Both the position numbers and the translations under genes were made by a program. The notes beneath the pieces were generated by a model, which saw only the letters and a list, made by a program, of their open reading frames with translations, searched no databases and was not told the origin of the DNA. Shown one piece after another: positions 4,529-41,003 of a DNA stretch of 64,000 nt (within the stretch, counting starts at the first letter, position 1; each line of letters opens with the position of its first letter). The DNA lies in assembly GCA_018652045.1 (NCBI GenBank), contig JABICX010000005.1:74426-138425 (forward strand), given 5' to 3'. The stretch is from Candidatus Woesearchaeota archaeon. GTDB lineage: Archaea; Nanobdellota; Nanobdellia; UBA10117; JABICX01.

Positions 4529-4568
4529 ATCTAATAGAGTACGCAGATGGATAAAAGCTTTTTCTTAA

Positions 4569-4630
4569 TTGTATACTGGACTATATAAAAGTAACTTGTA
4601 TACGGTAGCAAACAGTTAGTATTTGTATAC
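4569..4630. promoter_or_regulatory. three copies of TTGTATAC (palindromic core GTATAC) spaced 27 nt apart in a divergent intergenic region
   Basis: TTGTATAC occurs at 4569-4576, 4596-4603 and 4623-4630, between divergent genes starting at 4528(-) and 4674(+). Confidence 0.5.
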
Positions 4631-4673
4631 AGGAGTAAACAATTGTTATATATCCTGGTAGCTTTTTTTCTGT

Positions 4674-7292
4674 ATGAACGTAACACGCAGTGGATACGTT
4701 AATAGAGCTGTAGCTCTAACACTACTATTCGTATTGATATCTACGGTCAGCGCTCAAACAACCGAACGTGGTCCGTACTGGAACCGAGTGACTAATGATG
4801 ATGGTACCGTCTCTCTCGAGGTTAGCGAGTTAATGAACTACAACAATGGTACTGATTATGTTCCAATTAATATCACACTGATTCAGGACTGTGAGCAAGG
4901 ATATGACTATTGTGTTGAGGCTGGTGTATATCAGGCGCAGTTTAAGCAAAGTTCTTCAGGAACTGAGATTGCAACGTACACATTTAATGATAGCTCTGTA
5001 AGTTATACTCCTTACAAATTGCAATATACTGGTAACAATAAGCAGAGTTTGATATCTAACTCACAGAATGTTATTGGTTTTGCAGAAGATAATAAGTTTA
5101 CTTATCCGGCCATTTATGGATCGGGTTTTAACCTGAGCTTTACCTACCAAGCTACTCGACTGAAGGAAGAGTTGATAATTGAAGATGAAGATGACTTGCC
5201 AGAACCATCTAATAAGTTAGGTAATGACCCGCAACTAAGTCTTGAGTTTAAGATTCGGATGGATAACTTAGACGCAGAGAATCACGGTAGTAAAGTTAAG
5301 TGGAATAAAGTAAGTGACTTTGTAGTTGATGGCAGGGTTGACTTTAAGGATTCTGAAGGGAATATATTGTTCTTCTTGCCGCAAGCGTATGCTATTGACA
5401 GTGCTGGCGAGCGAGTAGACATCTCTTACGAGTTTAAGAAGGCAGGAGTTAATCTGTTTGTAAGTATGAAGACGCCATACTCCTGGTTGGAAGATGATGA
5501 TAGAGAGTATCCTGTGTATATTGATCCAACAACTGCGCTGTCAAGTTCAGCTTCTTCAGCAGCATCTAAGAACGACAATGCTGACACAAACTTTGGTGGT
5601 CAGAACTACATAGCAGTTGGTAAGAGCCAGAGTACTTTGGGTGAGATTCGTACGTTTATTATGTTTAATGTTTCTCAGATTCCTGCAGATGTAGAGATCG
5701 ACTCTGCAAATCTGTATCTATGGCTATATGAGGATAATACTGAAAGTAATAGTCAAGTTATCAATGCACATAGAGTTACATCTTATTGGATTGAGGATGA
5801 AGTTACATGGAATGATCGTGCTACTGGTGTGGCATGGATCTCTGATGGCGGAGACTTTGACGCGAGCATCGCTGATTCTACAACGATCTCTGCTGACCCT
5901 TCTGACGCATGGTATAGTTGGGATCTTACAGCTCTAACTACTACGTGGTACAATGGCAGCTACGATAACTTTGGTATTGTTCTTAAGAAGCAGGAGACTA
6001 AGCAATGGGAGCACAGATTCTATAGTGATGAGTTTACTGCAGACCCTGGTTTGGCTCCAAAGTTGGAAGTTAATTATTCTATTATCGAAGAGATCGAAGA
6101 CGCTGATATAACTATTCCAGAAGTGAGTTTAATCTACCCTGAAAGTGGTACGTATGGTGCGCAAGTTACTGCGTTGAACTACACTGCATCTGATGTTAAT
6201 TTAGAGTCATGTTGGTGTTCTACAGATAATGGTGCCACAAATATAACTATGACGTGTGGTCAGAATGCGACTGGTTTGGATAGTGTGGATGGAAGTAACA
6301 TTTGGATGGTCTGGGCAAATGACTCCACAGGTAATCAGAATTCATCATCAGTTACATTTATAGTTGATACAACCGCACCACATATAACTATTGATTCTCC
6401 AAATGGTACATATAACACAAGTACTATGGATTTGAACTACACAGTTACAGATCTGCAAGAGGTCAACTGTACATACAATGTGAGTTCTTTAGTTAATGAC
6501 TCTGTTGTGTCAGACACTGCGCTTGAAGGTTGTAATAATATAACTTTTAATGTTACTGACGGTAACTATACGCTGTATCTTACTGCCGAAGATGCAGTAG
6601 GTAATCTTGCTAATCAGTTTGTGAACTTTACGGTCTTGCTTCCAGTTAATACTACTGACGCCACGAATACTACAAATACCACCAATACAACCGATACATC
6701 GACACCACCTCCAGCAGATTCCAGTAACAATAACAATCGTAATGATAATGCGGTAGAAGAGAATGATACTGTTGAGGAAGAAGATGAAGTGGATGATGCG
6801 GTGTGTGTTGAAGACTGGAGCTGTTCAGATTGGGGAAACTGTATTGCTGGCGTGCAGATACGTGATTGTACTGAAGCCAATAGTTGTGGAACAACCTTAG
6901 ACAACCCAGTTGAGGTACAAGAATGTAAGATAGATCACTGTATTGATAATATACAAAACTCTGATGAAGAAGGTGTTGACTGTGGTGGAGATGATTGCGA
7001 TGCTTGTGAACAAGAGTCTGGCTTTTACAGATTAACTGGAGCGTTGCTAGAGATACCTGATGTAGCAGTTAGTAAGTCTGGAGCTGCATATGTCTCCATC
7101 TTATTGGTGGGTCTGTGTGGAATGTATATTACGATTAACTCTTATCGTAAGCTGCCTAAACATAAAAGAAAGTTACGATCACAGATGCCATTCCGGCGAG
7201 GAAAGGTTATCGACTTTTCAAATAGTAAGCGACGTAGAGTAGACAATTGGAAGCGCAATCTTCATAGAAAATTTAAAGAACGTCTAGCTTAA
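4674..7292 (+). CDS. large secreted/anchored surface protein (signal peptide, DNRLRE/CBM96-like module, Ig-like repeats, Thr-rich linker, Cys-rich module, C-terminal TM anchor)
   Basis: N-terminal hydrophobic signal. The block DNADTNFGG...FNVSQIP...ANLYLW...VTWNDR resembles a DNRLRE domain. There is a TNTTNTTNTT linker, a hydrophobic C-terminal helix with a basic tail, and very many N-x-S/T sequons. Confidence 0.7.
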   Translation: MNVTRSGYVNRAVALTLLFVLISTVSAQTTERGPYWNRVTNDDGTVSLEVSELMNYNNGTDYVPINITLIQDCEQGYDYCVEAGVYQAQFKQSSSGTEIATYTFNDSSVSYTPYKLQYTGNNKQSLISNSQNVIGFAEDNKFTYPAIYGSGFNLSFTYQATRLKEELIIEDEDDLPEPSNKLGNDPQLSLEFKIRMDNLDAENHGSKVKWNKVSDFVVDGRVDFKDSEGNILFFLPQAYAIDSAGERVDISYEFKKAGVNLFVSMKTPYSWLEDDDREYPVYIDPTTALSSSASSAASKNDNADTNFGGQNYIAVGKSQSTLGEIRTFIMFNVSQIPADVEIDSANLYLWLYEDNTESNSQVINAHRVTSYWIEDEVTWNDRATGVAWISDGGDFDASIADSTTISADPSDAWYSWDLTALTTTWYNGSYDNFGIVLKKQETKQWEHRFYSDEFTADPGLAPKLEVNYSIIEEIEDADITIPEVSLIYPESGTYGAQVTALNYTASDVNLESCWCSTDNGATNITMTCGQNATGLDSVDGSNIWMVWANDSTGNQNSSSVTFIVDTTAPHITIDSPNGTYNTSTMDLNYTVTDLQEVNCTYNVSSLVNDSVVSDTALEGCNNITFNVTDGNYTLYLTAEDAVGNLANQFVNFTVLLPVNTTDATNTTNTTNTTDTSTPPPADSSNNNNRNDNAVEENDTVEEEDEVDDAVCVEDWSCSDWGNCIAGVQIRDCTEANSCGTTLDNPVEVQECKIDHCIDNIQNSDEEGVDCGGDDCDACEQESGFYRLTGALLEIPDVAVSKSGAAYVSILLVGLCGMYITINSYRKLPKHKRKLRSQMPFRRGKVIDFSNSKRRRVDNWKRNLHRKFKERLA

Positions 7293-19627: not shown

Positions 19628-21979
19628 TTATTTGATCTGACGTACTCGCATTGTTCCCTTAACTAGTGCTTCGATCTTCTTCCAGTCTTTTGGTTTTCGT
19701 TTTAGTTTGTAAGATTCTAGCTCTGCACCCATTCCAAGCTGATTCTTTTGTTTGTGTTGGCGAATCTCAGATATGATCTTACAGGCTTGCTTTCCGAGAG
19801 TTATTGCTTCAGCATCCACTTTGTCTGGCTTTGAGAACTGAAGTGTATGTATGCTCTTTGACTTTATCTGTCGCTTGTATAACTTTTCATATATCTCTTC
19901 AGTCATGTGTGGGATTAATGGAGCAAACATCTTTAGAATCTCTAGAAGCGTTTTGTTAAGTGTCCACTGTGCTGCTTGTTTACTCTTCTGATCAGTTCCA
20001 TATGTTCTATACTTAATCATCTCAAGATAGAAATCACAGAACTCTGCGTAAAAGAAATCTTCTAAAATACGTCTAGCTTGACTGATTTCATATCTATCTG
20101 AATGTTTAATGTAACTGTTCTGTATCTCTGCTAGTCTTGATAAAATCCACTTGTCGGAGATTTCCAGTTGTGGCTTTGTCTTAGGAACCTTGCCTATATT
20201 CATGGCAATGAATCGTGAAGAGTTCCACAGCTTGATAAGAACTTTTGACCCCCTAACTAGCTCCTGCTCTTTGAAAGGCATATCTTTGCCCAATGAGACG
20301 GTTGAAACCCAATATCGAATGGCATCTGCACTGTACTTTTCTAAGAGATCTTTCAACCATATGGCATTTCCTTTTGACTTTGACATGCCTCGGCCTTTTG
20401 GATCCAAAACATAATTACTGATCATAACCTCTTTCCATGGAATATCCTTGAAGTGTAAGTATGCTTTGAGTATAGTGTAAAACGCCCACGTTCTAATTAT
20501 GTCGTGGCTCTGCGGACGTAGGCTAACTGGAAACATCTTTTTGAACTGGTCTGGCTTTTTTAGCCATTTAATAATGATTTCAGGAGACATACTTGATGTC
20601 ATCCAAGTATCAAAAACATCTTTTTCGGGTTCAAACTGACCTGAACCACAAGAACATTTCTTTGTAGGTTTCACCTCAAATGGATCGACTGGCAGAATCT
20701 TTGCGTCTGCAATTTGCTCTTTACCACACTTTTTACAGTACCAGATAGGCATTGGAACGCCATAATACCGTTGTCTAGATATGATCCAATCCCAGCCAAG
20801 GTTGTTTGTCCAATCCTCAAACCGTTTTCTATAGAATTTAGGATGCCAATCAATCTTACGGCCTTGCTTAATGAGTTCTTTTTTAAACGCTAATGTCTTG
20901 ACAAACCATTGCTTTGTTGGCAAGAATTCAATTGGAGTGTTACATCTCCAGCAAACACCAACAGTCTGTTCTAAATCTTCTTGGCGAGCGAGTAAACCCC
21001 ATCCTTCTAAATCGTCAATAACCGCGGCCTTTGCTTGGTTTAGTTTCAAACCAGCGTATTTTCCAGCAGCTTTGGTTAGCTTACCTTCCTTATCGATTAT
21101 GATCTTCATTGGCAGTTTTAGTCTGCGCCATTTTTCTAAGTCAGCATTATCTCCAAAGGTACAAACCATCATGAGACCCGATCCAAATTCCATATCAACA
21201 GAATCGTCTGCGAAGATTGGAACCCAGAAGTTGAATATTGGGACTTTGATTTTCTTACCAATAAGATGTGTGTATCTTTTATCTTCAGGATGTGCAAAAA
21301 CGCCGACACATGCAGGTAGGAATTCGGGGCGAGTTGTTGCGATCTCAACTTTTTTGCCGTTCTCTAGTTCAAAATAAACCCAGTTCATCTTAGTCTTTCT
21401 TTTTGCATCTTCAACTTCAGCTTGCGCTAAAGCAGTCTGATGATGTGGGCACCAAAGAACGGGTTCTTCTGCACGGTAAGCATATCCTTTTTTGTATAGA
21501 TCAACGAAAGATGTTTGCGCAACTTTTTGAGACTCTGAATCTATTGTTGTATATAGTAAGTTCCAGTCATAAGCATGGCCGAGCGCTTTGAAAAAACGCT
21601 TTGTGTAATTCTTTTCCACCTTACCAGCTTCTTTTCTGCAGAGTTTTCTAAACTTTGATCGACTCATGTCTGTTTTTGTGATTTTATATTTTTCTTCAAC
21701 GTACTTCTCAGTAGGAAGTCCGTTATTATCAAAACAAGGTGGGAAATAAACGTTAAATCCACGCATCCGCTTATAGCGAGATACTAACTCAAACTGCGTA
21801 TAGTGAAGTGCATGTCCTACATGAAGATGGTCGCCAGATGCATAAGGTGGTGGCGTATCAATTGAGAAAATCTCTTTCTTTGATTTTGGATCGAATTGAT
21901 ATGTCTTGTTCTTTTCCCAGTACTTTTGCCACTTCTCTTCGATCTTCTTGAAATCCGGCTTGCGATCTAGCTCTGCCAT
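19628..21979 (-). CDS. valS: valyl-tRNA synthetase
   Basis: HIGH-type HVGHALHY, KMSKS-type GMSKSKGN, and editing-domain-sized CP1 insertion. Confidence 0.95.
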   Translation of the reverse strand: MAELDRKPDFKKIEEKWQKYWEKNKTYQFDPKSKKEIFSIDTPPPYASGDHLHVGHALHYTQFELVSRYKRMRGFNVYFPPCFDNNGLPTEKYVEEKYKITKTDMSRSKFRKLCRKEAGKVEKNYTKRFFKALGHAYDWNLLYTTIDSESQKVAQTSFVDLYKKGYAYRAEEPVLWCPHHQTALAQAEVEDAKRKTKMNWVYFELENGKKVEIATTRPEFLPACVGVFAHPEDKRYTHLIGKKIKVPIFNFWVPIFADDSVDMEFGSGLMMVCTFGDNADLEKWRRLKLPMKIIIDKEGKLTKAAGKYAGLKLNQAKAAVIDDLEGWGLLARQEDLEQTVGVCWRCNTPIEFLPTKQWFVKTLAFKKELIKQGRKIDWHPKFYRKRFEDWTNNLGWDWIISRQRYYGVPMPIWYCKKCGKEQIADAKILPVDPFEVKPTKKCSCGSGQFEPEKDVFDTWMTSSMSPEIIIKWLKKPDQFKKMFPVSLRPQSHDIIRTWAFYTILKAYLHFKDIPWKEVMISNYVLDPKGRGMSKSKGNAIWLKDLLEKYSADAIRYWVSTVSLGKDMPFKEQELVRGSKVLIKLWNSSRFIAMNIGKVPKTKPQLEISDKWILSRLAEIQNSYIKHSDRYEISQARRILEDFFYAEFCDFYLEMIKYRTYGTDQKSKQAAQWTLNKTLLEILKMFAPLIPHMTEEIYEKLYKRQIKSKSIHTLQFSKPDKVDAEAITLGKQACKIISEIRQHKQKNQLGMGAELESYKLKRKPKDWKKIEALVKGTMRVRQIK

Positions 21980-22021
21980 TTACAAGTTAACCTCCAGAAG
22001 TTTAAAAGAACTTTGGCTGAA

Positions 22022-22062
22022 CCTTTCTCTTTCCGAAAGAGAAACGTTCGCGAAAGAGAAAC
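22022..22062. repeat. hairpin repeat element, copy A (CCTTTCTCTTT-CCG-AAAGAGAAACGTTCGCGAAAGAGAAAC)
   Basis: Identical to 26048-26087 except for the hairpin loop (CCG vs AG). It has a 9-bp stem TTTCTCTTT/AAAGAGAAA followed by the palindrome TTCGCGAA. Confidence 0.9.
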
Positions 22063-22127
22063 CTCTTTGGATGAATACTTTTCTAAAGGATTCAAAAGAT
22101 ATTAGGCTAGGTGACGTTTTACAAACA

Positions 22128-22186
22128 AACGGGGTAATCACCATATACCATTGTGTAAACGATTAAGAAGGCAGGCTTTTTAAGAG
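22128..22186 (+). promoter_or_regulatory. GGGGTAATCACC...TGTAAACG...CTTTTTAAGAG module upstream of tRNA-Val
   Basis: About 60 nt alignable by eye to 37695-37752 (same 12-mer, TGTAAACG and a TATA-like TTTAxAAGAG). It ends 8 nt before tRNA-Val. Confidence 0.5.
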
Positions 22187-23153: not shown

Positions 23154-23252
23154 CTGCTGTGCTCAGCCTCACCTGCAAAAGTTATTTACCTCTATTTGTT
23201 AATGCAAAAAGGTGGCTTATTATGTTTATAACATTTTGTTTGAACAATCAAA

Positions 23253-23403
23253 TGGACCAGCTGAGATTTTCCTCGAACTTCGTTCGCATTAATCGAAGAG
23301 GTTCGTTTTGAACTCAGGACCCCCTGCGTGCGAGGCAGGTACGCTATTGCCCAACCACCGGCCGTGCAAAAACCTTGCGGTTACCGGACTGCGCCACTGG
23401 CCC
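23253..23403 (-). tRNA. tRNA-Ala(CGC) with two non-canonical introns (D-loop about 36 nt, T-loop about 40 nt)
   Basis: Reverse complement: GGGCCAG TG GCGC AGTCCGGTA[..CCGCAAGG...GGGCAAT..]A GCGT A CCTGC CTCGCAC GCAGG GGGTC CTGAG TTCAAA[ACGAACC...GAGGAAA]T CTCAG CTGGTCC A. The G3:U70 pair is present. Exact intron borders are ambiguous. Confidence 0.75.
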
Positions 23404-25600: not shown

Positions 25601-25712
25601 CTTTTCTTGTACAAAATACTTATAAATCGCTATAATCATACATAACTATGACAATAGGTGAGTGCCCCTTTACAGCGTAAGAAGGTCTCTCTAGTCATTA
25701 ATAGTTCTCAAG

Positions 25713-26015
25713 GTGATCGTCCCTTTAATCAGCCAGGTTGTTTTGATTAGATCAATTCAGAAGTTTTCTAAGGAGCGGTTGAATCAAAAACAGAAGATTA
25801 TTATTCGTTATATTGTTCAACATCCTCAAAAGGTTAATGTCACTAAACTTGTTACTCAATTAGTTGGAGAGATAGATTGTTGTTCTTCAACAGTCTGGAA
25901 TAATCTTAATTCGCTAAAACGGGCAGGTCTGATCAACTATGGTTCTGCAGAAAATCGTGGTCATAAAGTAATACTTACACGTGTAGGAAAACTATTGGAG
26001 GTAACGGGTTGGTAG
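25713..26015 (+). CDS. small winged-helix protein (GTG start in track)
   Basis: wHTH-like VTKLVTQLVGEIDCCSSTVWNNLNSLKRAGLI. The last 9 nt overlap the 5' end of tRNA-Phe. Confidence 0.45.
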   Translation: MIVPLISQVVLIRSIQKFSKERLNQKQKIIIRYIVQHPQKVNVTKLVTQLVGEIDCCSSTVWNNLNSLKRAGLINYGSAENRGHKVILTRVGKLLEVTGW

Positions 26016-26140
26016 CTTAGTCTGGGAGAGCGCGCGACTGAAGAAGCCTTTCTCTTTAGAAAGAGAAACGTTCGCGAAAGAGAAACTACTTTTTCGACCA
26101 GAGATCGCGAGATCGTGAGTTCAAATCTCACCCAACCCAT
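26007..26140 (+). tRNA. tRNA-Phe(GAA) with 60-nt canonical-position intron (26045-26104)
   Basis: GGGTTGG TA GCTT AGTCTGGGA GAGC G CGCGA CTGAAG[intron]A TCGCG AGATC GTGAG TTCAAAT CTCAC CCAACCC A. Confidence 0.85.
26048..26087. repeat. hairpin repeat element, copy B, inside the tRNA-Phe intron
   Basis: CCTTTCTCTTT-AG-AAAGAGAAACGTTCGCGAAAGAGAAAC; see copy A. Confidence 0.9.
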
Positions 26141-26152
26141 AATTTATTTAAA

Positions 26153-27679
26153 ATGCAAGATATAGAATATAGTATGAAGGACATAATCAAGCTAGCAGAT
26201 TCTCTACAAGATAATGAAATCAAGGTACTGCGAGCTTTTAAGCCAAAGGTAGACCACCTTGCAGATCTAAAAGGTCTGCCAAAGAACGAGTTCCTACGTG
26301 CAGGTATGTGGCTTGATAATAAAGGTCTGATCAAGACGCATAAGACTAAGACCCGTTGGATTCAGCTTGATATGCTTGGTGAGAGATATGTTAAGGGAAA
26401 GCTACCTGAACTAGCACTTCTTGCTCTTCTTAAGAAAAAGCCACTTCCATTAGATACTCTTCGTAAACATTTCCCACAGGACGAATTGCGCTTCGCAATG
26501 GGTTATCTTAAGCAGAAAGGATATGTGGAATATAGACACGGTACTCTTGCGATTACAGATACAGGTCTTAAGGTGCGCGTAACTCTTGAGTTCAAGTTCT
26601 TGCTGAAGCTAGCTAAGCTGAAAGAGATTGGTGTAGGTACACTACTTCCAGAAGATCAATATGCTTATCAGAATCTTAAGAAGCGAAAACAGCTAGTTAG
26701 GGAGGTTGAACGAACTTCAATACATTTCACAATCACAGATATCGGTAAGAAAGTACTTCAGAACCTAAGTGATGAAAAACGAATCGGAATGATTACATCA
26801 AGTATTATTAAAAGTGGATCTTGGGAAAAGGCCAAGTTCCGTAGATATGATGTATCTGCACCCGTTCCTAAAGTCTATCCTGGAAAGAAACAGCCGTATA
26901 ATCAGTATCTTGATGATGTCCGCGCTAAGTTGGTTAGGTTAGGCTATAAGGAAATGACGGGACCCTTGGTTGAGACTGAGTTTTGGCATTTTGATGCTAT
27001 GTTCCAGCCGCAAAATCATCCTGCAAGAACCTGGACAGATACATACTCGCTGAAGAGTCCTAAATATGGTAAACTTCCAAGTAAGAAACTAGTTTCAACC
27101 GTAAAAGTCGCACATGAGACTGGAGGAAAAACCGGATCAATTGGTTGGAACTATAACTGGAGTGAGAAGGTTGCTAGTCAGCTACTTCCAAGAGGGCACG
27201 GTACAGGTATGTCTGCGCGTAAGATCTCTGAAAAGCCAGCTGTTCCATGTAAGTACTTTGGATTAGGTAGATCATATCGACCAGATATGCCTGACGCATC
27301 ACATCTTATTGAGTTTAATCAAGTTGACGTCTTTGTTATAGACAAGAATGCTAACTTCAAACAGCTTTTAGGAATACTAAAACAGTTCGCAAAGGAGCTA
27401 GCCGGAGCTACGGAGGTTAAGTTCGTACCTGATTATTATCCATTTACAGAGCCAAGTGTCCAGATATCTGCAAAGCATCCAGTACTTGGGTGGATGGAGT
27501 TAGCTGGAGCAGGTATATTCCGTCCAGAGTTCACACAGTCGCTAGGGATCAAGGAGCCAGTCATGGCTTTCGCTTTCGGAGTGGACCGTCTAGCAATGTA
27601 TAAGTTAGGAATCAATGATATTCGTTACTTGTTCAGTCAGGATCTAGACTGGCTTAGAAAGGAGAAGATCGTCAAATGA
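26153..27679 (+). CDS. pheS: phenylalanyl-tRNA synthetase alpha subunit
   Basis: Class-II motifs FRPDMPDASHLIEFNQVD, GAGIFRPE and AFGVDRLAM, with an archaeal-type N-terminal extension. An alternative leaderless start at ATG 26175 is possible. Confidence 0.95.
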   Translation: MQDIEYSMKDIIKLADSLQDNEIKVLRAFKPKVDHLADLKGLPKNEFLRAGMWLDNKGLIKTHKTKTRWIQLDMLGERYVKGKLPELALLALLKKKPLPLDTLRKHFPQDELRFAMGYLKQKGYVEYRHGTLAITDTGLKVRVTLEFKFLLKLAKLKEIGVGTLLPEDQYAYQNLKKRKQLVREVERTSIHFTITDIGKKVLQNLSDEKRIGMITSSIIKSGSWEKAKFRRYDVSAPVPKVYPGKKQPYNQYLDDVRAKLVRLGYKEMTGPLVETEFWHFDAMFQPQNHPARTWTDTYSLKSPKYGKLPSKKLVSTVKVAHETGGKTGSIGWNYNWSEKVASQLLPRGHGTGMSARKISEKPAVPCKYFGLGRSYRPDMPDASHLIEFNQVDVFVIDKNANFKQLLGILKQFAKELAGATEVKFVPDYYPFTEPSVQISAKHPVLGWMELAGAGIFRPEFTQSLGIKEPVMAFAFGVDRLAMYKLGINDIRYLFSQDLDWLRKEKIVK

Positions 27680-31056: not shown

Positions 31057-31467
31057 ATGATTACAATAGGTTTAGTTGCACAGGGTGATATTGTTAGGAG
31101 ACTTACCCGTCTTCTTGAGGTAAGAGAGGATCAGGAGTATTTAGTACAACCATTTAGACTCCATGGCGATGCCCTATCCCATATTGATAAAGTCAAAAGA
31201 GGCAAGAACGGAGCTCGCTTGGATGTTATATTATCACACGAAGCTATGAACAAAGTACCTTTTGGGGACATACCTGCAGTATATGCGAATCAGAACTGTG
31301 CCATCCCTGTTATCCATGTTTTTGATCGAGAGACTGAAACCGACCTACCACATGTTACTAGTGATGTTATTGCAAGTGAACTGTATCGCGTAATTGACCA
31401 AGTTGTTGCCAACATCACACCTGAATGTCAATCACCCAGTGATGAGTCTGTGCTCCATACTTCTTGA
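31057..31467 (+). CDS. hypothetical protein (possible receiver-like fold without obvious phospho-acceptor)
   Basis: ORF only. Confidence 0.4.
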   Translation: MITIGLVAQGDIVRRLTRLLEVREDQEYLVQPFRLHGDALSHIDKVKRGKNGARLDVILSHEAMNKVPFGDIPAVYANQNCAIPVIHVFDRETETDLPHVTSDVIASELYRVIDQVVANITPECQSPSDESVLHTS

Positions 31468-32197
31468 CCTTTCTTGCGTTGAGTACTTTTAGATCCGAAG
31501 CGATACTCGTTATTTTAGATATAATCTCTTCAGAGTCAGCTGCTAGCTCGTGAAAGTGTATAATTGCGCCTTTCTTAGCTGCTTTTAGAGCTACAGGCAG
31601 GAACTCATAGGTACCTGGAAAACTGCACAAATCACTTTGCAATTTGCTAGCATTACTTCTCTTATGCGAAGTAAAGTAACCCATGAGAATCCTATCAAAC
31701 TTCTTTCCTAGTTTTAGAGTCTCGACCTTACTATCCCCTTCTATAACGTTTACCTGGCCTTCGACCTTGTTTAGTTTGATGTTATGCTTTAGCAAGTCAA
31801 CTGAATCGTTATTCAGTTCGATTGCTGTAACGCTTGCGTCAGTTAGTTTGGATATTGGAATGGTAAAGTATCCAATGCCTGCAAACATATCTAATACCTC
31901 TTCAGATCCTTTTATTTGGCTAACAATCCTACGTTTTTCTGCCTGATTGCCTTTTGAGAACATGACTTTTGAGATATCAACTATAAAGTCGCAATGGTTT
32001 TCTCTTACTTTAGCAAGTGTATTTCGTTCGCCTGCTAGCCAGGTTACATTCGGCGTTCTAAGCTGACCCGATATCTTACCTTGGTAATAGACTGACTTAA
32101 AACGCTTATACTGATCTAAGATCGCTTGAGCAACCTTCTTATCTTTCTGCTTAATCAGACAGATCTCACCAATTGCTTGATATGATGTCGATATCAT
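31415..32197 (-). CDS. trm5: Met-10+ family tRNA methyltransferase (Trm5 / Taw2-like)
   Basis: VLDMFAGIGYFTIPISK SAM motif and Met-10+ family layout. Confidence 0.75.
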   Translation of the reverse strand: MISTSYQAIGEICLIKQKDKKVAQAILDQYKRFKSVYYQGKISGQLRTPNVTWLAGERNTLAKVRENHCDFIVDISKVMFSKGNQAEKRRIVSQIKGSEEVLDMFAGIGYFTIPISKLTDASVTAIELNNDSVDLLKHNIKLNKVEGQVNVIEGDSKVETLKLGKKFDRILMGYFTSHKRSNASKLQSDLCSFPGTYEFLPVALKAAKKGAIIHFHELAADSEEIISKITSIASDLKVLNARKVKKYGAQTHHWVIDIQV

Positions 32198-32263: not shown

Positions 32264-32695
32264 ATGACAAAAAACAGAAAGGAGTCAGTTTTTGTTCGTT
32301 ATGGAAAAGATACGCGTGTTCAATCACGAGAGTTTACTATTCAGCTACAATATATGATTGAGGTTCGAGGCAAGGCTAATTTACAGGTTACTGGTGAAGA
32401 TGGTTCCAGTAAGACGTTCGTAGCAACCGTGCCTTTTACAGACACCGGTAATATTGAATCAGATTTAGCCGAAGCTATACAAGATAGTGAGGGTGTTGAA
32501 AATGGAGTTCAAAAGCACGTTATGAAACCCCTTCTTGATGAATTAGGTGTTACAGATACATTACTATCAACCATAATTGACAGCGCTTTAGTTAAGGTTA
32601 ATGTCGCAGAAAAAGATCTTAAGGTATATGGTCCGTTTAAAGGCGATGTTCGTATTCACGGTAAAACATATACTTTACCGGTTGAAGATGCTTAG
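32264..32695 (+). CDS. hypothetical protein
   Basis: ORF only. Confidence 0.45.
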   Translation: MTKNRKESVFVRYGKDTRVQSREFTIQLQYMIEVRGKANLQVTGEDGSSKTFVATVPFTDTGNIESDLAEAIQDSEGVENGVQKHVMKPLLDELGVTDTLLSTIIDSALVKVNVAEKDLKVYGPFKGDVRIHGKTYTLPVEDA

Positions 32696-35004
32696 AAAGT
32701 ATAGGCTATCTTCTCGACCTTTCCGCCGCAGTACTTTAAGATCCATTTAACAGCTAGTTCAGTAGCGTCTTTTAGCTCTTTTTCAGAGGTGACTGATGTC
32801 CCGTCTACGTATAGAATGGTGTCTTTTGTCTTGTCTGTGATCTTTGTAAAATCTGAGTCTCGGTAGTTTAGGTCTCTACAGAATATCATATTTTTCTTAT
32901 CTGCGTATACTAATTCACCATCAGATACGGTTTTTGGCTTGTCTGCCATCAAAGCAGTGAACTGCTCACCCTCTTTTGAGAAGCGTAGATATGTTGGGAA
33001 GTTTAGGTTCTTCATGTCAAAAGCACCCATAGAGACCTGTGTCTTCATAACAGCAAGGTTGTATACATCAACTAGAGTGTTAACTGTGTACAAGTCCTGC
33101 CCTTTCTTTACTCGAAGTAATAATGCGAGTGGACTAGGTTTTCTTTTGGTTGGATCGACTCCAGTTGCACGATAGATTCGTTTGTATTCTGCAAGAACAG
33201 GTATCTCACTAAGTTCTTTGTCTTTAAACTCTTTAATTAGATCGCCAACTACTTGTTTCTTAAGTTTTTCAAGTTCAGGTGTCTGTTTCTGAACGTTTAC
33301 ACCACGAATAACTGCGATTCCCGCTTTCAGGCCAGGAAACTTGGTTAGAACCTCTTTCTGAATCTCAAAAATGTCTTTAACGGGTTTATAGCCATTAACC
33401 TGCTTTTTTGGAGCAGCTTTTGAGGTAAGTGCCTTGTTGATAATCTTAGCTATCTTGTTCTTCCCGACTGCGAGTACAAATGGGGCTAATCTTGGTCCTC
33501 GCTCGCGGTTGATTAGAACTTGATAGACTGCGGGGAAGAATTCTTTTAGCGTTAAGTTATGTGCTTTAGCAATGTTTCCAAAAACCGGAATTAGTTGATC
33601 TACGGTTTTGTAGCTTTTACCTAATGCCTTTGCTAGATCCTTAAGTGCCTCTCGTTGATCTACTGAAAGACCTTCAGTAGTAGGGTTTTCCTGAAGCTCA
33701 AACCGATACCTGTCTGGCGCATACTTTGCTAACCAGTTGCCCATTAACGTCATGATTAGAAGAATTCTATCCACGTCTGCTTTCTTTTTGACTTTGAACT
33801 GCTTTGCATACTCTTCTGATGCTTTCTTTGGATCACGATAGATATTCATAAACTCAACACAGGTTCGAATTGCTGGCTGTATTGGCAGCGAACGAGGTGG
33901 TTTATTAACTGCAGACATCTCGTAAACTCTAGACCAGTGTGCCTTATCCCGTGGAATAACCTGTTCTTTTCCAAAGTAGATACGCTCACATCGATAAAAG
34001 TCCTCATATACCTTTAGAACATCCTCGTCAAAGCCTACTGAGAACTCAATGACTGGTTTTCTTCCAGCATACATGTATCTAACTACTTCTGGAAGATAGA
34101 CCTCGAGAGCGTCAGATAGCTTGATAACATTACCTAATGAGCTAGACATCTTACCACCTACACTCTTAACAATAACATAATCGTACATAAATCGTACTGG
34201 CGGTCCATAATGGAAGACAGTCTTGCATAGATCATGACCTGTATCTAGAGATCCGCCGGGCGTATTGTGTTCTTTTCCACCACCTTCACTAGTTACTTTC
34301 TCATAGCGCCACCGCATTGCCCAATCAACTCTCCATGGAAGCTTTGTAAGACCCTCTTTTTTGAAGTTAGTCTCTCCCTTAGATTTACATGCATTACAGC
34401 TATACGTAAGAGTATATTCTCCATCCCAATCAGTAACCTGTGTCTGTTCACGATTGCATTTCTTACAGTAGATAGCTGCAGGATACCAGTTTGGTGGAAG
34501 TGGCTCTTTACGATACTTATTTAGGATCTTTCGGATCTCAAAGCGATTCTCTAGAACAAACTTGATCTCATCAGCATATTTGCTAGATCTATACATCTTG
34601 CTTTGATAGATAAACTGTGGGTGAATACCCACTAAAGGAACCGCTGCCTCTGCCTCTTTCTCAAAGTGTTCGGTATATGACTTATGACAGCCCCATGGAT
34701 CTGGAGCATCTACACCTGGCATGTACATATACTTCTCAAATGCTTTTGGATTAGGAATGTTTTTTGGAACCTTTCTGATTCGATCGTAATCATCCCATGA
34801 GTAGATAAAACGAGCTTTCTTGCCTTTGTCTCTAAGTGCTCTACATATAATATCTGTAGTGATCATCTCTCTAAAGTGACCTATGTGAATGGTTCCAGAG
34901 GGAGTGATGCCTGCAGCTACTGTGTGAAGCTTTGCTGTTGGGAATCTTTCAATGATCTTGTCCGCTAGCTGATCTGCCCAGTATAAACTACCTTTAACAA
35001 CCAT
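32692..35004 (-). CDS. lysS: class-I lysyl-tRNA synthetase fused to a C-terminal B3/4 (PheRS-beta-type, COG3382-like) domain
   Basis: HIGH = TIHIGHFRE, KMSKS = GGKMSSSLGN, class-I LysRS CxxC...CxxC insertion and WRVDWAMRW block. The C-terminal 240 aa or so match the stand-alone B3/4 pattern (YRATGVDPTKRKPSPLALLLRVKKG...NTLVDVYN...GELVYAD...FCRDLNYRDSDFTKIT). Confidence 0.9.
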   Translation of the reverse strand: MVVKGSLYWADQLADKIIERFPTAKLHTVAAGITPSGTIHIGHFREMITTDIICRALRDKGKKARFIYSWDDYDRIRKVPKNIPNPKAFEKYMYMPGVDAPDPWGCHKSYTEHFEKEAEAAVPLVGIHPQFIYQSKMYRSSKYADEIKFVLENRFEIRKILNKYRKEPLPPNWYPAAIYCKKCNREQTQVTDWDGEYTLTYSCNACKSKGETNFKKEGLTKLPWRVDWAMRWRYEKVTSEGGGKEHNTPGGSLDTGHDLCKTVFHYGPPVRFMYDYVIVKSVGGKMSSSLGNVIKLSDALEVYLPEVVRYMYAGRKPVIEFSVGFDEDVLKVYEDFYRCERIYFGKEQVIPRDKAHWSRVYEMSAVNKPPRSLPIQPAIRTCVEFMNIYRDPKKASEEYAKQFKVKKKADVDRILLIMTLMGNWLAKYAPDRYRFELQENPTTEGLSVDQREALKDLAKALGKSYKTVDQLIPVFGNIAKAHNLTLKEFFPAVYQVLINRERGPRLAPFVLAVGKNKIAKIINKALTSKAAPKKQVNGYKPVKDIFEIQKEVLTKFPGLKAGIAVIRGVNVQKQTPELEKLKKQVVGDLIKEFKDKELSEIPVLAEYKRIYRATGVDPTKRKPSPLALLLRVKKGQDLYTVNTLVDVYNLAVMKTQVSMGAFDMKNLNFPTYLRFSKEGEQFTALMADKPKTVSDGELVYADKKNMIFCRDLNYRDSDFTKITDKTKDTILYVDGTSVTSEKELKDATELAVKWILKYCGGKVEKIAYTF

Positions 35005-35297: not shown

Positions 35298-36770
35298 TTA
35301 TACACCTCCTGCCAATAGTTGTCTGACATTTTCTCGTACGTCGTCTCTTCTTACAGCCAACATAAGAGACAGCGGTGGACCTTCAGATCTTCCAAGCGTC
35401 GACTGATAGACGGTCTGAAAGAACCCTAAACGTTCAGCTGTGCTGTTATCTACTCTATCTGCTGCTCGCTGTACAACTCTTTCCAAATCATCTACTGCCA
35501 AGCCGTTGTTTGTATTGTCATATAGATACTGAACTGCAGGTCTGTACTGTTCTGAAAGTTCTGTAGCTGGTTGTTCAAGAATCGCTAACCTACGTGCATC
35601 AGGCATGTAATTTTCTATATAGTTACGCGCCATGTGCAGTATGTCGTCATTATAACTTCCAGCATAACGTTCCATTATTAGGCGCTCATCCTGACTATTC
35701 TGACCTAGCTGGCTAGCGAGCATAGCTGCCTGATACTGCGTACCTAATTCACGATCGTAGCCAGTAATTAATTCAGGAACTGACGGTAGATCAATCACAT
35801 TTGGTGTGTTTCCTCTTGGTCTTGCTCGCAACATAGTATAACGTAAGATATCTGCAGGCATAATGTCAAATAGATCTTGGATAAGGAAGAAATCTAGTGG
35901 TTCTTCGTCTGGTTGTGTTCTTACTTGCATCCAACTTTCAGCTATTGCAGCAGGTGGCTCTCCACCAAAGAGCTGTCGATAATATGTCGCAGCCCTTGCA
36001 TATACACTCGATACCTCTCCACTACTAGATAGATGTCGCTGATCTAGTGGTTCAACTGTTGCGCCAAGTTCTGACCATCTAGCAGCCATTACTATTGGCC
36101 ATCTTGGTCTTACAACACCGTTCCAGGTAAGTAAATCTTGCAGAGAGTCTATAGTTTGTGTATAACCACAGCCTCTAACTGTTATGTCGCGTCTACCTTC
36201 AGAATAACTTCTGAATTCCTGCTCCCCAGAACATCTGTAGGTGTAATGATCATCTTCAGATGTTACTGATGTTGTAGCAAGCTGCTCGCAATGAGGACAC
36301 TGCACAAACAAAGGCAGTTCACCGCTCTCGTTTTCCATTACTCGAAGTATCTGTGGCATGTACTGTTGAAGCATTTCAGATTCAGTGACCATTGTTGCGT
36401 CAACCCCAAACTCATCCAATACATCGGTTATCTGATTTACAAAATACGAGACAAAGTTCTGCGACCCCACCATGACTTGATTCTGCGGCCTACCTAGATA
36501 TCTTTCAGTCTCTCGCGGTAACTCGCTAGCTATCGCTCGCAGTGGTTCATCATCTCCAATAGTTATCACCTGTCGTGCTTCTACATTCTGTGCACGTAAA
36601 GCTCTAACAATCTCGTCTGCGATCAGATGTTCATACATTCTTCGTGCTGAAGGCGGTACTGGACTACTACCCGTTACGATTGTTATTGGTCTCTCTGTCG
36701 TCGTATGTATCAGTCTTTGAGCATAGCTTCTAGCCCACGGTGCAATCTGTTGCCTAGTCATTACTCTCAC
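35298..36770 (-). CDS. lysine-free class-I LysRS paralog with degenerate HIGH/KMSKS (pseudo-synthetase)
   Basis: 0 Lys in 490 aa. By-eye alignment to the neighbouring LysRS: DEIVRALRAQ vs DIICRALRDK; VQCPHCEQL...YRCSG vs IYCKKCNRE...YSCNAC; RPRWPIVMAARW vs LPWRVDWAMRW; ADILRYTMLRARP vs PEVVRYMYAGRKP. HIGH is replaced by PPSA, and the KMSSS region by QPDEEPL. The likely true start is ATG 36761, 5 nt after GAGGTGA. Confidence 0.8.
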   Translation of the reverse strand: MRVMTRQQIAPWARSYAQRLIHTTTERPITIVTGSSPVPPSARRMYEHLIADEIVRALRAQNVEARQVITIGDDEPLRAIASELPRETERYLGRPQNQVMVGSQNFVSYFVNQITDVLDEFGVDATMVTESEMLQQYMPQILRVMENESGELPLFVQCPHCEQLATTSVTSEDDHYTYRCSGEQEFRSYSEGRRDITVRGCGYTQTIDSLQDLLTWNGVVRPRWPIVMAARWSELGATVEPLDQRHLSSSGEVSSVYARAATYYRQLFGGEPPAAIAESWMQVRTQPDEEPLDFFLIQDLFDIMPADILRYTMLRARPRGNTPNVIDLPSVPELITGYDRELGTQYQAAMLASQLGQNSQDERLIMERYAGSYNDDILHMARNYIENYMPDARRLAILEQPATELSEQYRPAVQYLYDNTNNGLAVDDLERVVQRAADRVDNSTAERLGFFQTVYQSTLGRSEGPPLSLMLAVRRDDVRENVRQLLAGGV

Positions 36771-37218
36771 CTCGTATGATAGCTAGAAGTTCTCGATTAC
36801 AACGTATTAGATGTGCTTGCGTATCTCGCTCACGAATAGTACTTACATCCTCTGGAGAAAGAACTACCTCTCGCTGGTTAATTCTACCTCTCGCTTGCCA
36901 GGTTGTTGCTATTCCACCAAGCCCACCTAATGGTCTGTTGTCTTCGTGGTATATCATCAATCCATAATAGGTTCTAGCCAGGTCTAAGACATAGCCAACA
37001 CTACTTGCAAAGTCAGATATTAACATCTGTCGCGGTAGACAGCGTTGTACAACTCGGATTGCTTGTGGTTGAATTTCAGTTAGACGAGGGTATCCTGCTA
37101 GATATCGTACGCCCTGTTCTAGTTCTGCGTCAATCCTACTACGTGAGATTGTCTGTGGTTCAACATCAAAATCTAAAGTTCCAAAATTAGTTCCCCAGCT
37201 GCTGCTTGGGATCACCAC
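36754..37218 (-). CDS. lysine-free 154-aa protein of unknown function (first long ORF of the operon)
   Basis: 0 Lys in 154 aa. It has a GTG start in the track with no SD in front. The reading frame is +1 relative to the SD-led mini-ORF that overlaps its 5' end. Confidence 0.6.
   Translation of the reverse strand: MVIPSSSWGTNFGTLDFDVEPQTISRSRIDAELEQGVRYLAGYPRLTEIQPQAIRVVQRCLPRQMLISDFASSVGYVLDLARTYYGLMIYHEDNRPLGGLGGIATTWQARGRINQREVVLSPEDVSTIRERDTQAHLIRCNRELLAIIRGESND
36767..36773 (-). promoter_or_regulatory. Shine-Dalgarno GAGGTGA for the LysRS paralog
   Basis: Lies 5 nt upstream of ATG 36761 on the minus strand, inside the 3' end of the preceding ORF. Confidence 0.7.
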
Positions 37219-37279
37219 GCATTTGTTCGCCCGTTTCCACGGCTCCCCGTCTTTGGTTATATTCGTTATTCATTTTCAT
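37187..37279 (-). CDS. SD-led leader mini-ORF (M(K)MNNEYNQRRGAVETGEQMRGDPKQQLGN)
   Basis: My translation. AGAGGT lies 2 nt before ATG 37279 and 8 nt before ATG 37273. It starts 13 nt downstream of the tRNA-Lys(CUU) 3' end and overlaps the start of the 154-aa ORF in the -1 frame relative to it. Confidence 0.45.
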   Translation of the reverse strand: MKMNNEYNQRRGAVETGEQMRGDPKQQLGN

Positions 37280-37281
37280 TT

Positions 37282-37287
37282 ACCTCT
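37282..37287 (-). promoter_or_regulatory. Shine-Dalgarno AGAGGT for the leader mini-ORF
   Basis: Minus strand reads TTTAGAGGTAAATGAAAATG. Confidence 0.55.
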
Positions 37288-37292
37288 AAAGA

Positions 37293-37385
37293 TGGGCCCA
37301 AGGGGATTTGAACCCCTAACCTTCCGATAGCTCTAGCTATTGCCATAAGAGTCGGACGCTCTGAACCAGGTTGAGCTATGAGCCC
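37293..37385 (-). tRNA. tRNA-Lys(CTT) with 17-nt canonical-position intron (37329-37345)
   Basis: Reverse complement: GGGCTCA TA GCTC AACCTGGTTCA GAGC G TCCGA CTCTTA[TGGCAATAGCTAGAGCT]A TCGGA AGGTT AGGGG TTCAAAT CCCCT TGGGCCC A. Confidence 0.85.
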
Positions 37386-37401
37386 GTATATAGAACTAAC
37401 G

Positions 37402-37439
37402 CTTGGGATGGTTATCACTGATCTTGGGATAATCACCAC
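37402..37439. repeat. tandem copies of the CTTGGGAT..ATCAC(C) motif
   Basis: CTTGGGATGGTTATCAC (37402-37418) and CTTGGGATAATCACCAC (37423-37439). The related CTTGGGATCACCAC lies at 37205-37218. Confidence 0.8.
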
Positions 37440-37489
37440 AGACAGTTAATTCGAAAAATACAGCTAGACAAGAATTCCTATTCTGATAT

Positions 37490-37541
37490 CTTAAGGTAAT
37501 CACCTAGCATGTTTATACCTATAAATCAGGCTTTATAAGAC
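37490..37541. promoter_or_regulatory. CTTAAGGTAATCACC...CTTTATAAGAC module between the two tRNA-Lys genes
   Basis: The same motif family plus a near-palindromic TATA element. Orientation is ambiguous. Confidence 0.45.
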
Positions 37542-37559
37542 TTACTATAAGAAAATAAG

Positions 37560-37633
37560 CGGGCCGTACAGGATTTGAACCCATGACTCCCAGGTTAAAA
37601 GCCTGGAGCTCTACCAGACTGAGCTAACGGCCC
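37560..37633 (-). tRNA. tRNA-Lys(TTT), no intron
   Basis: Reverse complement: GGGCCGT TA GCTC AGTCTGGTA GAGC T CCAGG CTTTTAA CCTGG GAGTC ATGGG TTCAAAT CCTGT ACGGCCC G. Confidence 0.85.
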
Positions 37634-37694
37634 TATCTCTGACTAAGTTAGTTACTTAATCAAAACAGCATAGCTAGAAGTGTGTTCCCTAAAA

Positions 37695-37752
37695 TTTGGG
37701 GTAATCACCGTTTGCCATGTTACCTGTAAACGTTGTAAGAGATTTATAAGAG
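37695..37752. promoter_or_regulatory. TTTGGGGTAATCACC...TGTAAACG...ATTTATAAGAG module
   Basis: Alignable to 22128-22186. It lies in the divergent region between tRNA-Lys(TTT) and the P-loop ATPase gene. Confidence 0.45.
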
Positions 37753-40928: not shown

Positions 40929-40945
40929 CCCGTCCAATAGCTCAG
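40929..40945 (+). other. partial duplicate of the tRNA-Tyr 5' end (CCCGTCCAATAGCTCAG)
   Basis: Compare the true 5' end CCCGTCCTAGCTCAA at 41004. The two are separated by a 58-nt segment that begins with a copy of the hairpin repeat. Confidence 0.6.
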
Positions 40946-40982
40946 CCTTTTCTTTACGAAAGAAAACGCTGGCGAAAAGAAA
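40946..40982. repeat. hairpin repeat element, diverged copy C (CCTTTTCTTT-ACG-AAAGAAAACGCTGGCGAAAAGAAAT)
   Basis: Same architecture as copies A and B, with substitutions. Confidence 0.65.
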
Positions 40983-41003
40983 TATTAAATGGGTACAAAT
41001 AAT

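Follow-up and report, generated by a model that had tools for sequence, protein, structure and literature searches.

A candidate hungry-codon +1 frameshift switch before a lysine-free operon in a marine woesearchaeote, with related sensors at other tRNA and aminoacyl-tRNA synthetase loci

Introduction

A stretch of 64,000 nucleotides (nt) from a Candidatus Woesearchaeota archaeon (GenBank assembly GCA_018652045.1, contig JABICX010000005.1, positions 74,426 to 138,425 of the forward strand; below, the window, whose own numbering is used throughout) carries on its minus strand a short leader open reading frame (ORF), the mini-ORF, in front of two genes that contain no lysine codon and, further downstream, the gene of a canonical lysyl-tRNA synthetase (LysRS). 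Inside the mini-ORF the hexamer GGTGAT is followed by CCC, a rare proline codon, and by AAG, a lysine codon, and the first lysine-free gene is open in the +1 frame from this point. We estimate a probability of about two in three that this site, named c5, is the lysine member of a conserved cis-regulatory switch in which a ribosome waiting for a scarce aminoacyl-tRNA at a “hungry” codon would slip by +1 into another reading frame. The observation itself is confirmed, and its interpretation as programmed +1 frameshift sensing of a new form is supported by paralogous copies at other loci and by an orthologous locus in a relative.

A 2016 review stated of starvation-specific trans-frame products that “no examples are known,” and a 2021 review of archaeal recoding gives as the demonstrated case in a cellular gene only a –1 event, in the S. 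solfataricus fucosidase; full-text literature searches found no published description of the system reported here. Should the slip prove real, regulation by frameshifting at a starved sense codon would have its first natural example, cellular genes of Archaea would have their first programmed +1 frameshift, and there would be a first candidate for how Archaea adjust tRNA and synthetase genes to tRNA charging, for which Bacteria use T-boxes and leader peptides.

The Mini-ORF and Its Proposed Slip Site

A first-pass annotation, made from the DNA letters of the window, had described the mini-ORF and suggested that lysine starvation shunts ribosomes through a +1 slip into the lysine-free genes. 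Its statements on the minus-strand sequence are correct base for base. The mini-ORF can be read from two ATG codons, and the Shine-Dalgarno (SD)-like GAGGT before them has, as the annotation held, the better spacing to the second, ATG 37273; this start is favoured because the orthologous locus described below has GAGGT 7 nt before its mini-ORF ATG. ATG 37273 is the probable start, with MNNEYNQRRGAVETGEQMRGDPKQQLGN as the product. It skips an AAA, codon 2 of the reading from ATG 37279, and the first lysine codon that is met is AAG, directly after CCC. Frame 0 then ends 6 codons past AAG. A start at ATG 37222 (MRGDPK...) was considered and dropped, as it has no TATA box at leaderless distance and the ortholog has an SD-led ATG only.

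The gene that the slip would enter, ORF154, is likewise as first described: it is free of lysine, starts with GTG without an SD and is read in +1 relative to the mini-ORF. Its 5′ region offers no alternative in-frame start, methionine next occurring at about codon 65. Its frame holds AAA at 37254, 37236 and 37224 and none thereafter, so that the lysine codons cease exactly at the motif. The stop codon of ORF154 overlaps ATG 36761 of the next gene, which has an SD of its own (GAGGTGA) and encodes 487 amino acids (aa), and the two ORFs together have 0 lysines in 640 codons; the lysine content of the genes neighbouring this operon is about 9%. After a slip at c5 the new A-site codon would be AGC, which is non-cognate, as it is at every member of the family described in the next section.

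The lack of an SD before ORF154, on which the annotation had leaned, is true; taken alone it is weak evidence, because first genes in this genome are mostly leaderless. The host is an archaeon of the marine Woesearchaeota, and the window contains intron-containing tRNAs and genes for L37e and an Sm protein. In nearly all first genes of the window a TATA box ends about 21 nt before the ATG, which indicates leaderless transcripts, and SDs (GGAGG, GAGGT, GGTGA) are confined to internal genes of operons. The TATA consensus is roughly (A)GCTTTTAAA, and the promoter layout is very regular across the whole window.

Immediately 5′ of the slip site stands an SD-like sequence, GGTGATCC, as had been reported. 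The spacing of the internal SD of prfB, with which it had been compared, is not established at c5, where the hexamer GGTGAT abuts CCC directly (0 nt vs. 3 nt in 10 of the 14 sensors tabulated below). In the genes of the window CCC makes up 5.8% of the proline codons and GGT 44.5% of the glycine codons. The c5 leader RNA has no significant fold (z +0.5 to +0.75), and a small hairpin drawn there, CCCAAGC-AGCA-GCUGGGG, was set aside for want of statistical support.

A Family of Putative Sensors Beside tRNA and Synthetase Genes

The annotated site is real but not unique, being the last of five lysine sensors at the locus, and similar sensors occur elsewhere in the window and on other marine DPANN contigs (Table 1). 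Their core is GGT GA(T/G) (NNN) CCC X, encoding the peptide G-D/E-(x)-P-X, and in every member X is a codon for the amino acid of the adjacent tRNA or synthetase gene. In the window X is lysine five times, valine once and phenylalanine twice. The pattern GGTGA[TG](NNN)?CCC has 8 matches in the window; 6 of them are intergenic, beside tRNA or synthetase genes and with the cognate codon next, and the other 2 lie inside genes. No further copy came from some 20 kb of additional flanking DNA of this genome, which holds neither tRNA nor synthetase genes.

Metagenome contigs were scanned with a pattern that ends at CCC and leaves X unspecified. This gave 7 loci, none from the genome of the window; 6 of them are family members, and the seventh is a false positive inside a 119-aa ORF. 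In a control on viral contigs, the core pattern matched 50 times, never with a TATA box and a short ORF. The cognate rule holds for lysine, valine, phenylalanine, isoleucine, proline and asparagine loci in at least three or four organisms, and with amino-acid frequencies of 4–9% per locus its joint chance probability is of the order of 1e-9. The codon after CCC is, on this comparison, the sensed element, because paralogous copies carry Val, Phe, Ile, Pro or Asn codons before the matching genes.

The members also share their fine structure. Each sensor has one cognate codon, placed directly after CCC or CTT: of the 14 sensors in the tabulation, 13 slip on CCC by this model and one on CUU-A, all proline sensors use CCC, and GGT is used in essentially all. 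CCC-N always yields another proline codon in the +1 frame. GGUGAU stands 3 nt before the slip codon in the ten sensors mentioned; besides c5 the exceptions are c4, where the hexamer is cut to GUGAU and the gap is 6 nt, and c7, which has GGUGAG. The spacer can be TAC, TAT, TGC or CGT (encoding Y, C or R) at constant length, and copies differ from one another by in-frame 3-nt insertions or deletions. At c1, c2, c6 and c7 the TATA box lies 21–25 nt before the ATG, the same spacing as in ordinary leaderless genes. Frame 0 ends 0–6 codons past X in the stand-alone sensors and runs on for 1 to 8 codons in c3, c4 and c8, in c3 through the next sensor.

The +1 frames measure 15, 32, 53, 46, 151, 50, 27, 97, 43, 22, 802, 21, 22 and at least 32 codons, and the –1 frames 13, 1, 4, 10, 12, 10, 9, 2, 28, 6, 16, 9, 9 and 24; the +1 frame is the longer in 13 of the 14 sensors. 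Beside synthetase and protein genes the +1 frames run to the start of the downstream gene: in the proline leader the TGA overlaps the ProRS ATG (ATGA), in one valine leader (L085) the frame has no stop and continues into ValRS, and in the isoleucine leader an in-frame stop lies 27 nt before the IleRS-like ATG. In the phenylalanine leader region, which spans 25648..26015 (+), the +1 frame of c7 enters c8 in frame, and that of c8 encodes a winged helix-turn-helix (wHTH) ORF.

In the two tRNA-Asn leaders a hairpin, GUGACAGC-GUAA-GCUAGUCAC, and then a run of 5–6 U precede the tRNA; the +1 stop UAA falls in the hairpin loop, and hairpin and U-run are seen only in the Asn leaders. This layout suggests frameshift-dependent antitermination.

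Nine of the ten primary leaders (c1, c2, c6, c7 and L084–L089) have CTAG, usually CTAGCY, 20–25 nt past the slip codon, at a distance that is fixed from the slip site and not from the stop codon. The first 10 nt of tRNA-Phe lie within the wHTH ORF. The ATG of PheRS alpha comes 14 nt past the 3′ end of tRNA-Phe, and ATG 37279 stands at an equal distance from tRNA-Lys(CUU), with 13 nt between tRNA and ATG; this layout suggests tRNA–mRNA co-transcripts.

TABLE 1. Coordinates of the sensors and of the genes beside them. Positions refer to the window unless a metagenome contig (L number) is named; peptides are given up to the stop codon.
Feature	Position	Strand	Details
SD-like GAGGT	37282..37286	–	2 nt to ATG 37279, 8 nt to ATG 37273
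Leader mini-ORF, MKMNNEYNQRRGAVETGEQMRGDPKQQLGN	37187..37279	–	frame 0, 30 codons; stop TAA 37189-37187
Sensor c5, GGTGAT CCC AAG	37205..37216	–	CCC 37210-37208; sensed Lys codon AAG 37207-37205
ORF154, 154 codons	GTG 37218..36754	–	+1 frame of mini-ORF, no SD; second GTG at 37215
ORF154 as +1-frame ORF entered at CCA 37209	36754..37209	–	151 codons, no Lys, orphan
LysRS paralogue (class I), 487 aa, lysine-free	35298..36761	–	PF01921 3.7e-26; orphan
Canonical Lys-rich class I LysRS with C-terminal B3/4 domain (PheRS-beta type)	32692-35004	–	downstream of the lysine-free genes
c1, MANGDYPKF, leaderless	37689..37718	–	sensed AAA; TATA 37749-37743; upstream of tRNA-Lys(UUU)
tRNA-Lys(UUU)	37559..37633	–	tRNA scan
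c2, MLGDYLKISE, leaderless	37478..37510	–	slip pair CTT-AAG; before tRNA-Lys(CUU)
c3 (GGTGATTAT CCC AAG) and c4 (GTGATAACCAT CCC AAG), reading GDYPKISDNHPKR	37396..37437	–	before tRNA-Lys(CUU)
+1 path from c3/c4 across tRNA-Lys(CUU)	37266..37427	–	53 codons, no stop, no Lys
tRNA-Lys(CUU), 17-nt anticodon-loop intron	37293..37385	–	Rfam 59.2 bits; ARAGORN -i tRNA-Lys(ctt)
c6 (Val), MVYGDYPVCL	22151-22119	–	TATA 22183-22177; sensed GTT; before ValRS
c6 leader including +1 frame	21980..22151	–	+1 frame of 50 codons, ends TAA 21982-21980 abutting ATG 21979
ValRS	19628-21979	–	NF009687 994.6 bits
c7 (Phe), MTIGECPFTA	25648-25680	+	TATA 25620-25626; sensed TTT; has GGUGAG
c8 (Phe), GDRPF...	25712-25750	+	GGT GAT CGT CCC TTT at 25712-25726; sensed TTT
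wHTH ORF, +1 frame of c8	25722-26015	+	97 codons; weak match, TK0271 family
tRNA-Phe	26006-26139	+	followed by PheRS alpha
PheRS alpha	26153-27679	+	Pfam
L083 sensor (Ile), MKIGDYPICA			sensed ATT; IleRS-like start, 34 aa before contig end (ileS sole hit, E 9e-4)
L084 sensor (Pro), MTMGDYPPVL			sensed CCA; ProRS (1e-101)
L085 and L089 sensors (Val), MVKGDYPVQNK			sensed GTG; ValRS in L085; L089 contig ends before any gene
L086 sensor (Asn), MAIGDYPNTN	leader 2300-2446	–	sensed AAT; tRNA-Asn and AsnRS (491 bits)
L088 sensor (Asn), MVIGDYPNTN	leader 700-828	–	sensed AAT; tRNA-Asn and GatC (78.8 bits)
L145 tRNA-crossing +1 frame	3180-3473	+	90-97 codons, no stop, no Lys
L145 lysine-poor operon	3639-4969		131-aa ORF (2 Lys) and RimK-type ATP-grasp (3 Lys/312 aa); 5 Lys/443 aa

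A Series of Putative Lysine Sensors Upstream of c5

The lysine sensors, c5 included, are arranged around two tRNA-Lys genes, with AAA as the sensed codon before tRNA-Lys(UUU) and AAG, four times, around the tRNA-Lys(CUU) and LysRS genes, a match of codon to anticodon that fits a sensor role. c2 is preceded by TTATAAA at 37538-37532, 21 nt before its ATG, and its +1 frame enters the secondary sensors c3/c4 in frame. From there a +1 path would lead across tRNA-Lys(CUU), and its stop, TAA 37268-37266, overlaps ATG 37273 of the mini-ORF (ATGAATAA).

The path is the only frame across the tRNA that is both open and free of lysine codons (AAR), here and in the orthologous locus. Over both genomes the other frames have 4–11 stops and 2–10 AAR codons; in the window the two remaining frames across tRNA-Lys(CUU) are interrupted by 4 and 7 stops and contain AAR 5 and 2 times. 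In shuffled sequences an open, AAR-free frame arises with a probability of 0.0016 in the window and of <5e-5 in the relative. Along the relay as a whole there are 0 AAR in 104 non-sensor codons, vs. 9 in the unused frame segments of the same 333 nt.

Ribosomes would thus pass from frame 0 of c2 through +1 to c3/c4, through +1 again onto the path across tRNA-Lys(CUU), stop on ATG 37273, translate the mini-ORF and, at c5, shift +1 into ORF154. The c5 switch appears to be the last of this relay, whose passage across the tRNA is putative. In its widest form, the proposal is that a clade of marine Woesearchaeota has a regulon-wide modular sensor, GGUGAU-NNN-CCC-X, with one codon swapped per tRNA or synthetase locus, and that at the lysine locus three or four hungry-codon +1 shifts in series lead through one or two intron-containing tRNA-Lys genes, re-initiate on the mini-ORF and open an operon with no or almost no lysine. 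We offer this wider proposal tentatively, at clearly less than even odds. If true, it would give synthetase and tRNA genes of Archaea their first cis-regulatory system, and protein-coding frames would be kept open across tRNA genes.

The Orthologous Lysine Locus

Conservation of the SD, of CCC-AAG and of the frame relationship at orthologous loci, which the first-pass annotation had named as a way to check its idea, is found in a relative (contigs L145/L146) whose LysRS is 65% identical and which has the same chain of elements as the lysine locus of the window. A counterpart of c2 has a TATA box, 21 nt, and then ATG TTA GGT GAG TAT CTT AAG (MLGEYLKVQ); its +1 frame, LRYSRR...GDYLKLSHNYPKQ, enters two further sensors. 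The following path crosses tRNA-Lys(CUU), with two introns, and tRNA-Lys(UUU), with one, and its TAA abuts the next ATG.

That ATG, 7 nt past GAGGT, starts a 22-codon mini-ORF, MTNENRENGTVEGVQTQGDYPK, the counterpart of MNNEYNQRRGAVETGEQMRGDPKQQLGN. Its sole lysine codon follows GGT GAT TAT CCC, the sensor reading GGT GAT TAT CCC AAG TAA. The +1 frame has 33 codons, no lysine, and stops 2 nt before a lysine-poor operon, downstream of which lies the LysRS, with 91 lysines. On this comparison the SD, the start, the lysine-free run, CCC-AAG, the frame link and a lysine-poor output are conserved, and the gated genes differ.

A Lysine-Free Paralogue of LysRS

The 487-aa protein matches class I LysRS at the level of the fold (PF01921); it has ARRM in place of HIGH and QPDEE in place of KMSKS in alignments to 1IRX and to the LysRS of the window, and its TIGR00467 score of 95.2 bits lies below the 147.5-bit cutoff, so that neither the signature motifs nor the equivalog threshold of the class are present. 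Judged from these residues it is a catalytically degenerate LysRS paralogue. Searches for homologs found only the protein itself, and a GTDB scan was empty. For ORF154, word-indexed and exhaustive HMMER searches (5.8 billion/1.84 billion proteins) returned its own cluster only, and its AF2 model has a pLDDT of 40 and is unusable.

The fusion of LysRS to a B3/4 domain is common to many DPANN relatives. A gene for a Trm5/TYW2-type tRNA methyltransferase (31415-32197, minus strand) adjoins LysRS and is syntenic in relatives. Trm5 makes m1G37, the modification that classically suppresses +1 slipping at CCC-N, and this neighbour may be relevant to the tuning of the switch.

Proposed Mechanism

In the mechanism that we propose, a short frame, leaderless in most members and SD-led at c5, brings the ribosome over GGUGAU, usually 3 nt, the rare codon CCC and then X. 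With plentiful X-tRNA, X would be decoded and termination would follow 0–6 codons on, at c5 at the TAA of the mini-ORF. With scarce X-tRNA, the A site would stay empty and the ribosome would wait, its peptidyl-tRNA(Pro) paired to CCC, until tRNA(Pro) re-pairs one base forward, CCC-A to CCA, and translation goes on in the +1 frame; pairing of GGUGAU(CC) with the 3′ end of 16S rRNA may assist the slip. At c5 this would give the junction ...GDP-SSSWGTNFGTLDFDVEPQTISR, within the peptide GDPSSSWGTNFGTLDFDVEPQTISR, and then lead through lysine-free ORF154 and, by way of the start/stop overlap and the GAGGTGA SD, into the lysine-free LysRS paralogue. The whole output at the lysine locus could be made without Lys-tRNA. 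The switch would thereby explain why the operon lacks lysine, the gated proteins being ones that can be made without Lys-tRNA, and this makes the lysine-free paralogue an obvious target for functional study. The starvation shunt suggested by the first-pass annotation thus gains comparative support, the slip itself being what we infer from it.

Several points weigh against this proposal. Both the trans-frame product and the translation of these frames are predictions from sequence. c5 has no 3-nt spacer, no TATA box of its own and no downstream CTAG, and is an atypical, secondary member of the family. The 16S rRNA gene lies outside the window, and the pairing of GGUGAU with the anti-SD is a predicted one; by our reasoning it would sit more internally on the anti-SD than that of prfB AGGGGG, so that the 3-nt gap is not geometrically equivalent to the one in prfB, and the hexamer may merely pause the ribosome. 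The sensed amino acid occurs in some +1 frames (4 Val in the valine leader, 3 Asn in each asparagine leader), and in leaders before tRNA genes the +1 ORF encodes nothing obvious. The GTG inside GGTGAT could in principle be the start of every +1 ORF. No leader was found where GTDB relatives encode a ValRS of 77% to 44% identity, nor a sensor in the DNA examined of LysRS relatives at 68% and 50% identity; by these comparisons the device is lineage-restricted.

Comparison With Known Systems

Among the closest known arrangements is the autoregulatory +1 frameshift of the bacterial release factor 2 gene, prfB, at AGG GGG UAU CUU UGA C (PMC5009743). In both, a short zero-frame ORF that ends soon after the shift site serves as the sensor, the P-site codon can re-pair in +1 (here CCC-A to CCA) and the useful product lies in the +1 frame (PMC5009743); a putative SD-like stimulator stands a few nt upstream, in most members at the nominal 3-nt gap and with UAU or UAC as the E-site codon. 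There are also differences. The slow A-site codon is a sense codon, AAG at c5, where prfB has a stop that its own product decodes, and none of the products here is a release factor; the cassette is modular, with different codons before different tRNA and synthetase genes; the host is an archaeon, its sensor ORFs are mostly leaderless, and at c5 the hexamer abuts CCC; in several members, moreover, the +1 frame leads up to the target's start without encoding the target. The device is not a member of the prfB family, because its A-site codon is sense and its cassette modular.

The elementary step has precedents. For tRNA-Pro, CCC-N is the classical site of +1 slipping, shifts to +1 become more likely at a slow A site, and a short zero-frame ORF can serve as a frameshift sensor (PMC5009743). 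The hungry-codon shifts of Gallant and Lindsley and the Ty1 site CUU-AGG-C are likewise slips of one P-site tRNA at a limiting A-site aminoacyl-tRNA, and their slippery codons, CUU and CCC, are those of the present family (PMC5009743; PMC8211752). Unlike here, hungry-codon shifting in E. coli is known only as a starvation error, and Ty1 relies on a constitutively rare tRNA and not on amino-acid supply. The antizyme +1 frameshift, a polyamine sensor, is similar in that the shift is both sensor and effector of a homeostatic circuit; its signal, its shift site (UCC-UGA) and its stimulators differ, and antizyme is eukaryotic.

As regulators of tRNA and synthetase genes, the sensors recall the bacterial leader-peptide attenuators (trpL, pheL, pheM of pheST, thrL, hisL), in which a short ORF, by the progress of the ribosome along it, reads the charged tRNA of an amino acid whose genes lie downstream. 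Those leaders have runs of cognate codons and terminator/antiterminator hairpins and involve no change of frame, whereas the sensors have one cognate codon each after CCC and conserved +1 frames, with no significant structure at the c5 leader; the tandem cognate codons expected of an attenuator are absent from the family. T-boxes are also cis elements with a cognate codon that control synthetase genes in response to tRNA charging, but they bind the tRNA directly through a long structured RNA, are bacterial and need no ribosome, and none is matched by Rfam in the window. The device is neither a T-box nor a classical multi-codon attenuator.

Alternative Explanations

The most serious alternative, unlikely in our judgement but well ahead of the others, is an attenuator that works by stalling, in which a pause at Pro-X, aided by the SD-like hexamer, senses the aminoacyl-tRNA with the frame unchanged and the ribosome, paused or released, acts on the termination of transcription, on RNA processing or on whether a downstream start can be reached. 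ORF154 would then initiate at GTG 37218 or 37215, giving (M/V)VIPSSSWGTNFGTLDFDVEPQTISR, and every motif contains such a GTG. This scheme accounts equally well for the cognate-codon rule and the short ORFs; GGUGAU 3 nt before the P-site codon is, by our reasoning, at a spacing close to that of initiation and would hold the ribosome; the tRNA-Asn leaders have their hairpin and U5-6 run, and CTAG lies just outside the footprint of a ribosome stalled at the slip codon. Stalling leaves unexplained, however, why the rare CCC is used over CCA and CCT, with CTT, itself a classical +1 codon, as the sole exception, and why the +1 frames are open, lysine-free and end at downstream starts in several loci and in the ortholog. 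The leader RNAs are without significant structure, and a GTG that is 6–12 nt from a leaderless 5′ end, or SD-less as at c5, is a poor start.

That the arrangement at c5 is a coincidence we consider very improbable. In that case ORF154 would start at GTG 37218 on a transcript that is processed or has a short leader, the mini-ORF would go untranslated, and GGTGATCCCAAG would match by chance or be a decayed remnant of the repeats nearby. GGTGATCCC does occur twice in the window, the second time inside a gene at 60980 and apparently by accident, c5 is without the spacer, TATA box and CTAG of typical members, and most first genes of the genome need no SD. Against coincidence, the relative retains the SD and the ATG, has a mini-ORF whose length and sequence resemble those seen here, and keeps CCC-AAG together with the +1 link; no TATA box lies at leaderless distance from GTG 37218; and the lysine codons in the frame of ORF154 end just where the motif stands.

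Slighter still is the chance of an element that works without ribosomes, whether as a specifier of T-box type, pairing with the anticodon of the tRNA, or as a DNA operator bound by a regulator. In its favour, the cognate codon lies within the motif, some copies have UGGU, which could pair with ACCA, and GGTGATTACC is nearly palindromic. Against it, the Rfam gathering scan of the window gave tRNAs only, no fold is significant, copies vary by in-frame 3-nt indels and synonymous changes, primary copies have a TATA box, an ATG at the spacing of leaderless genes and a stop a few codons on, and a DNA operator cannot account for the cognate-codon rule. A promoter or operator reading of the repeated GGTGAT..CCCAAG was dropped, the copies being reading frames with cognate codons.

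Other Features of the Window

An element of about 40 nt that can form a hairpin (CCTTTCTCTTT.GAAAGAGAAACGTTCGCGAAAGAGAAAC) occurs at 26045-26086, 22021-22062 and 40944-40983, all on the plus strand; the first copy lies in the long intron of tRNA-Phe, the second between the valine leader and the ValRS start, and the third is diverged. It may be a small mobile or repeat element. Just downstream of tRNA-Ile, at about 23243-23403 on the minus strand, a tRNA-like sequence with several insertions (GGGCCAGTGGCGCAG...CTGGTCCA) gave no call by ARAGORN or Rfam and is possibly a multi-intron tRNA.

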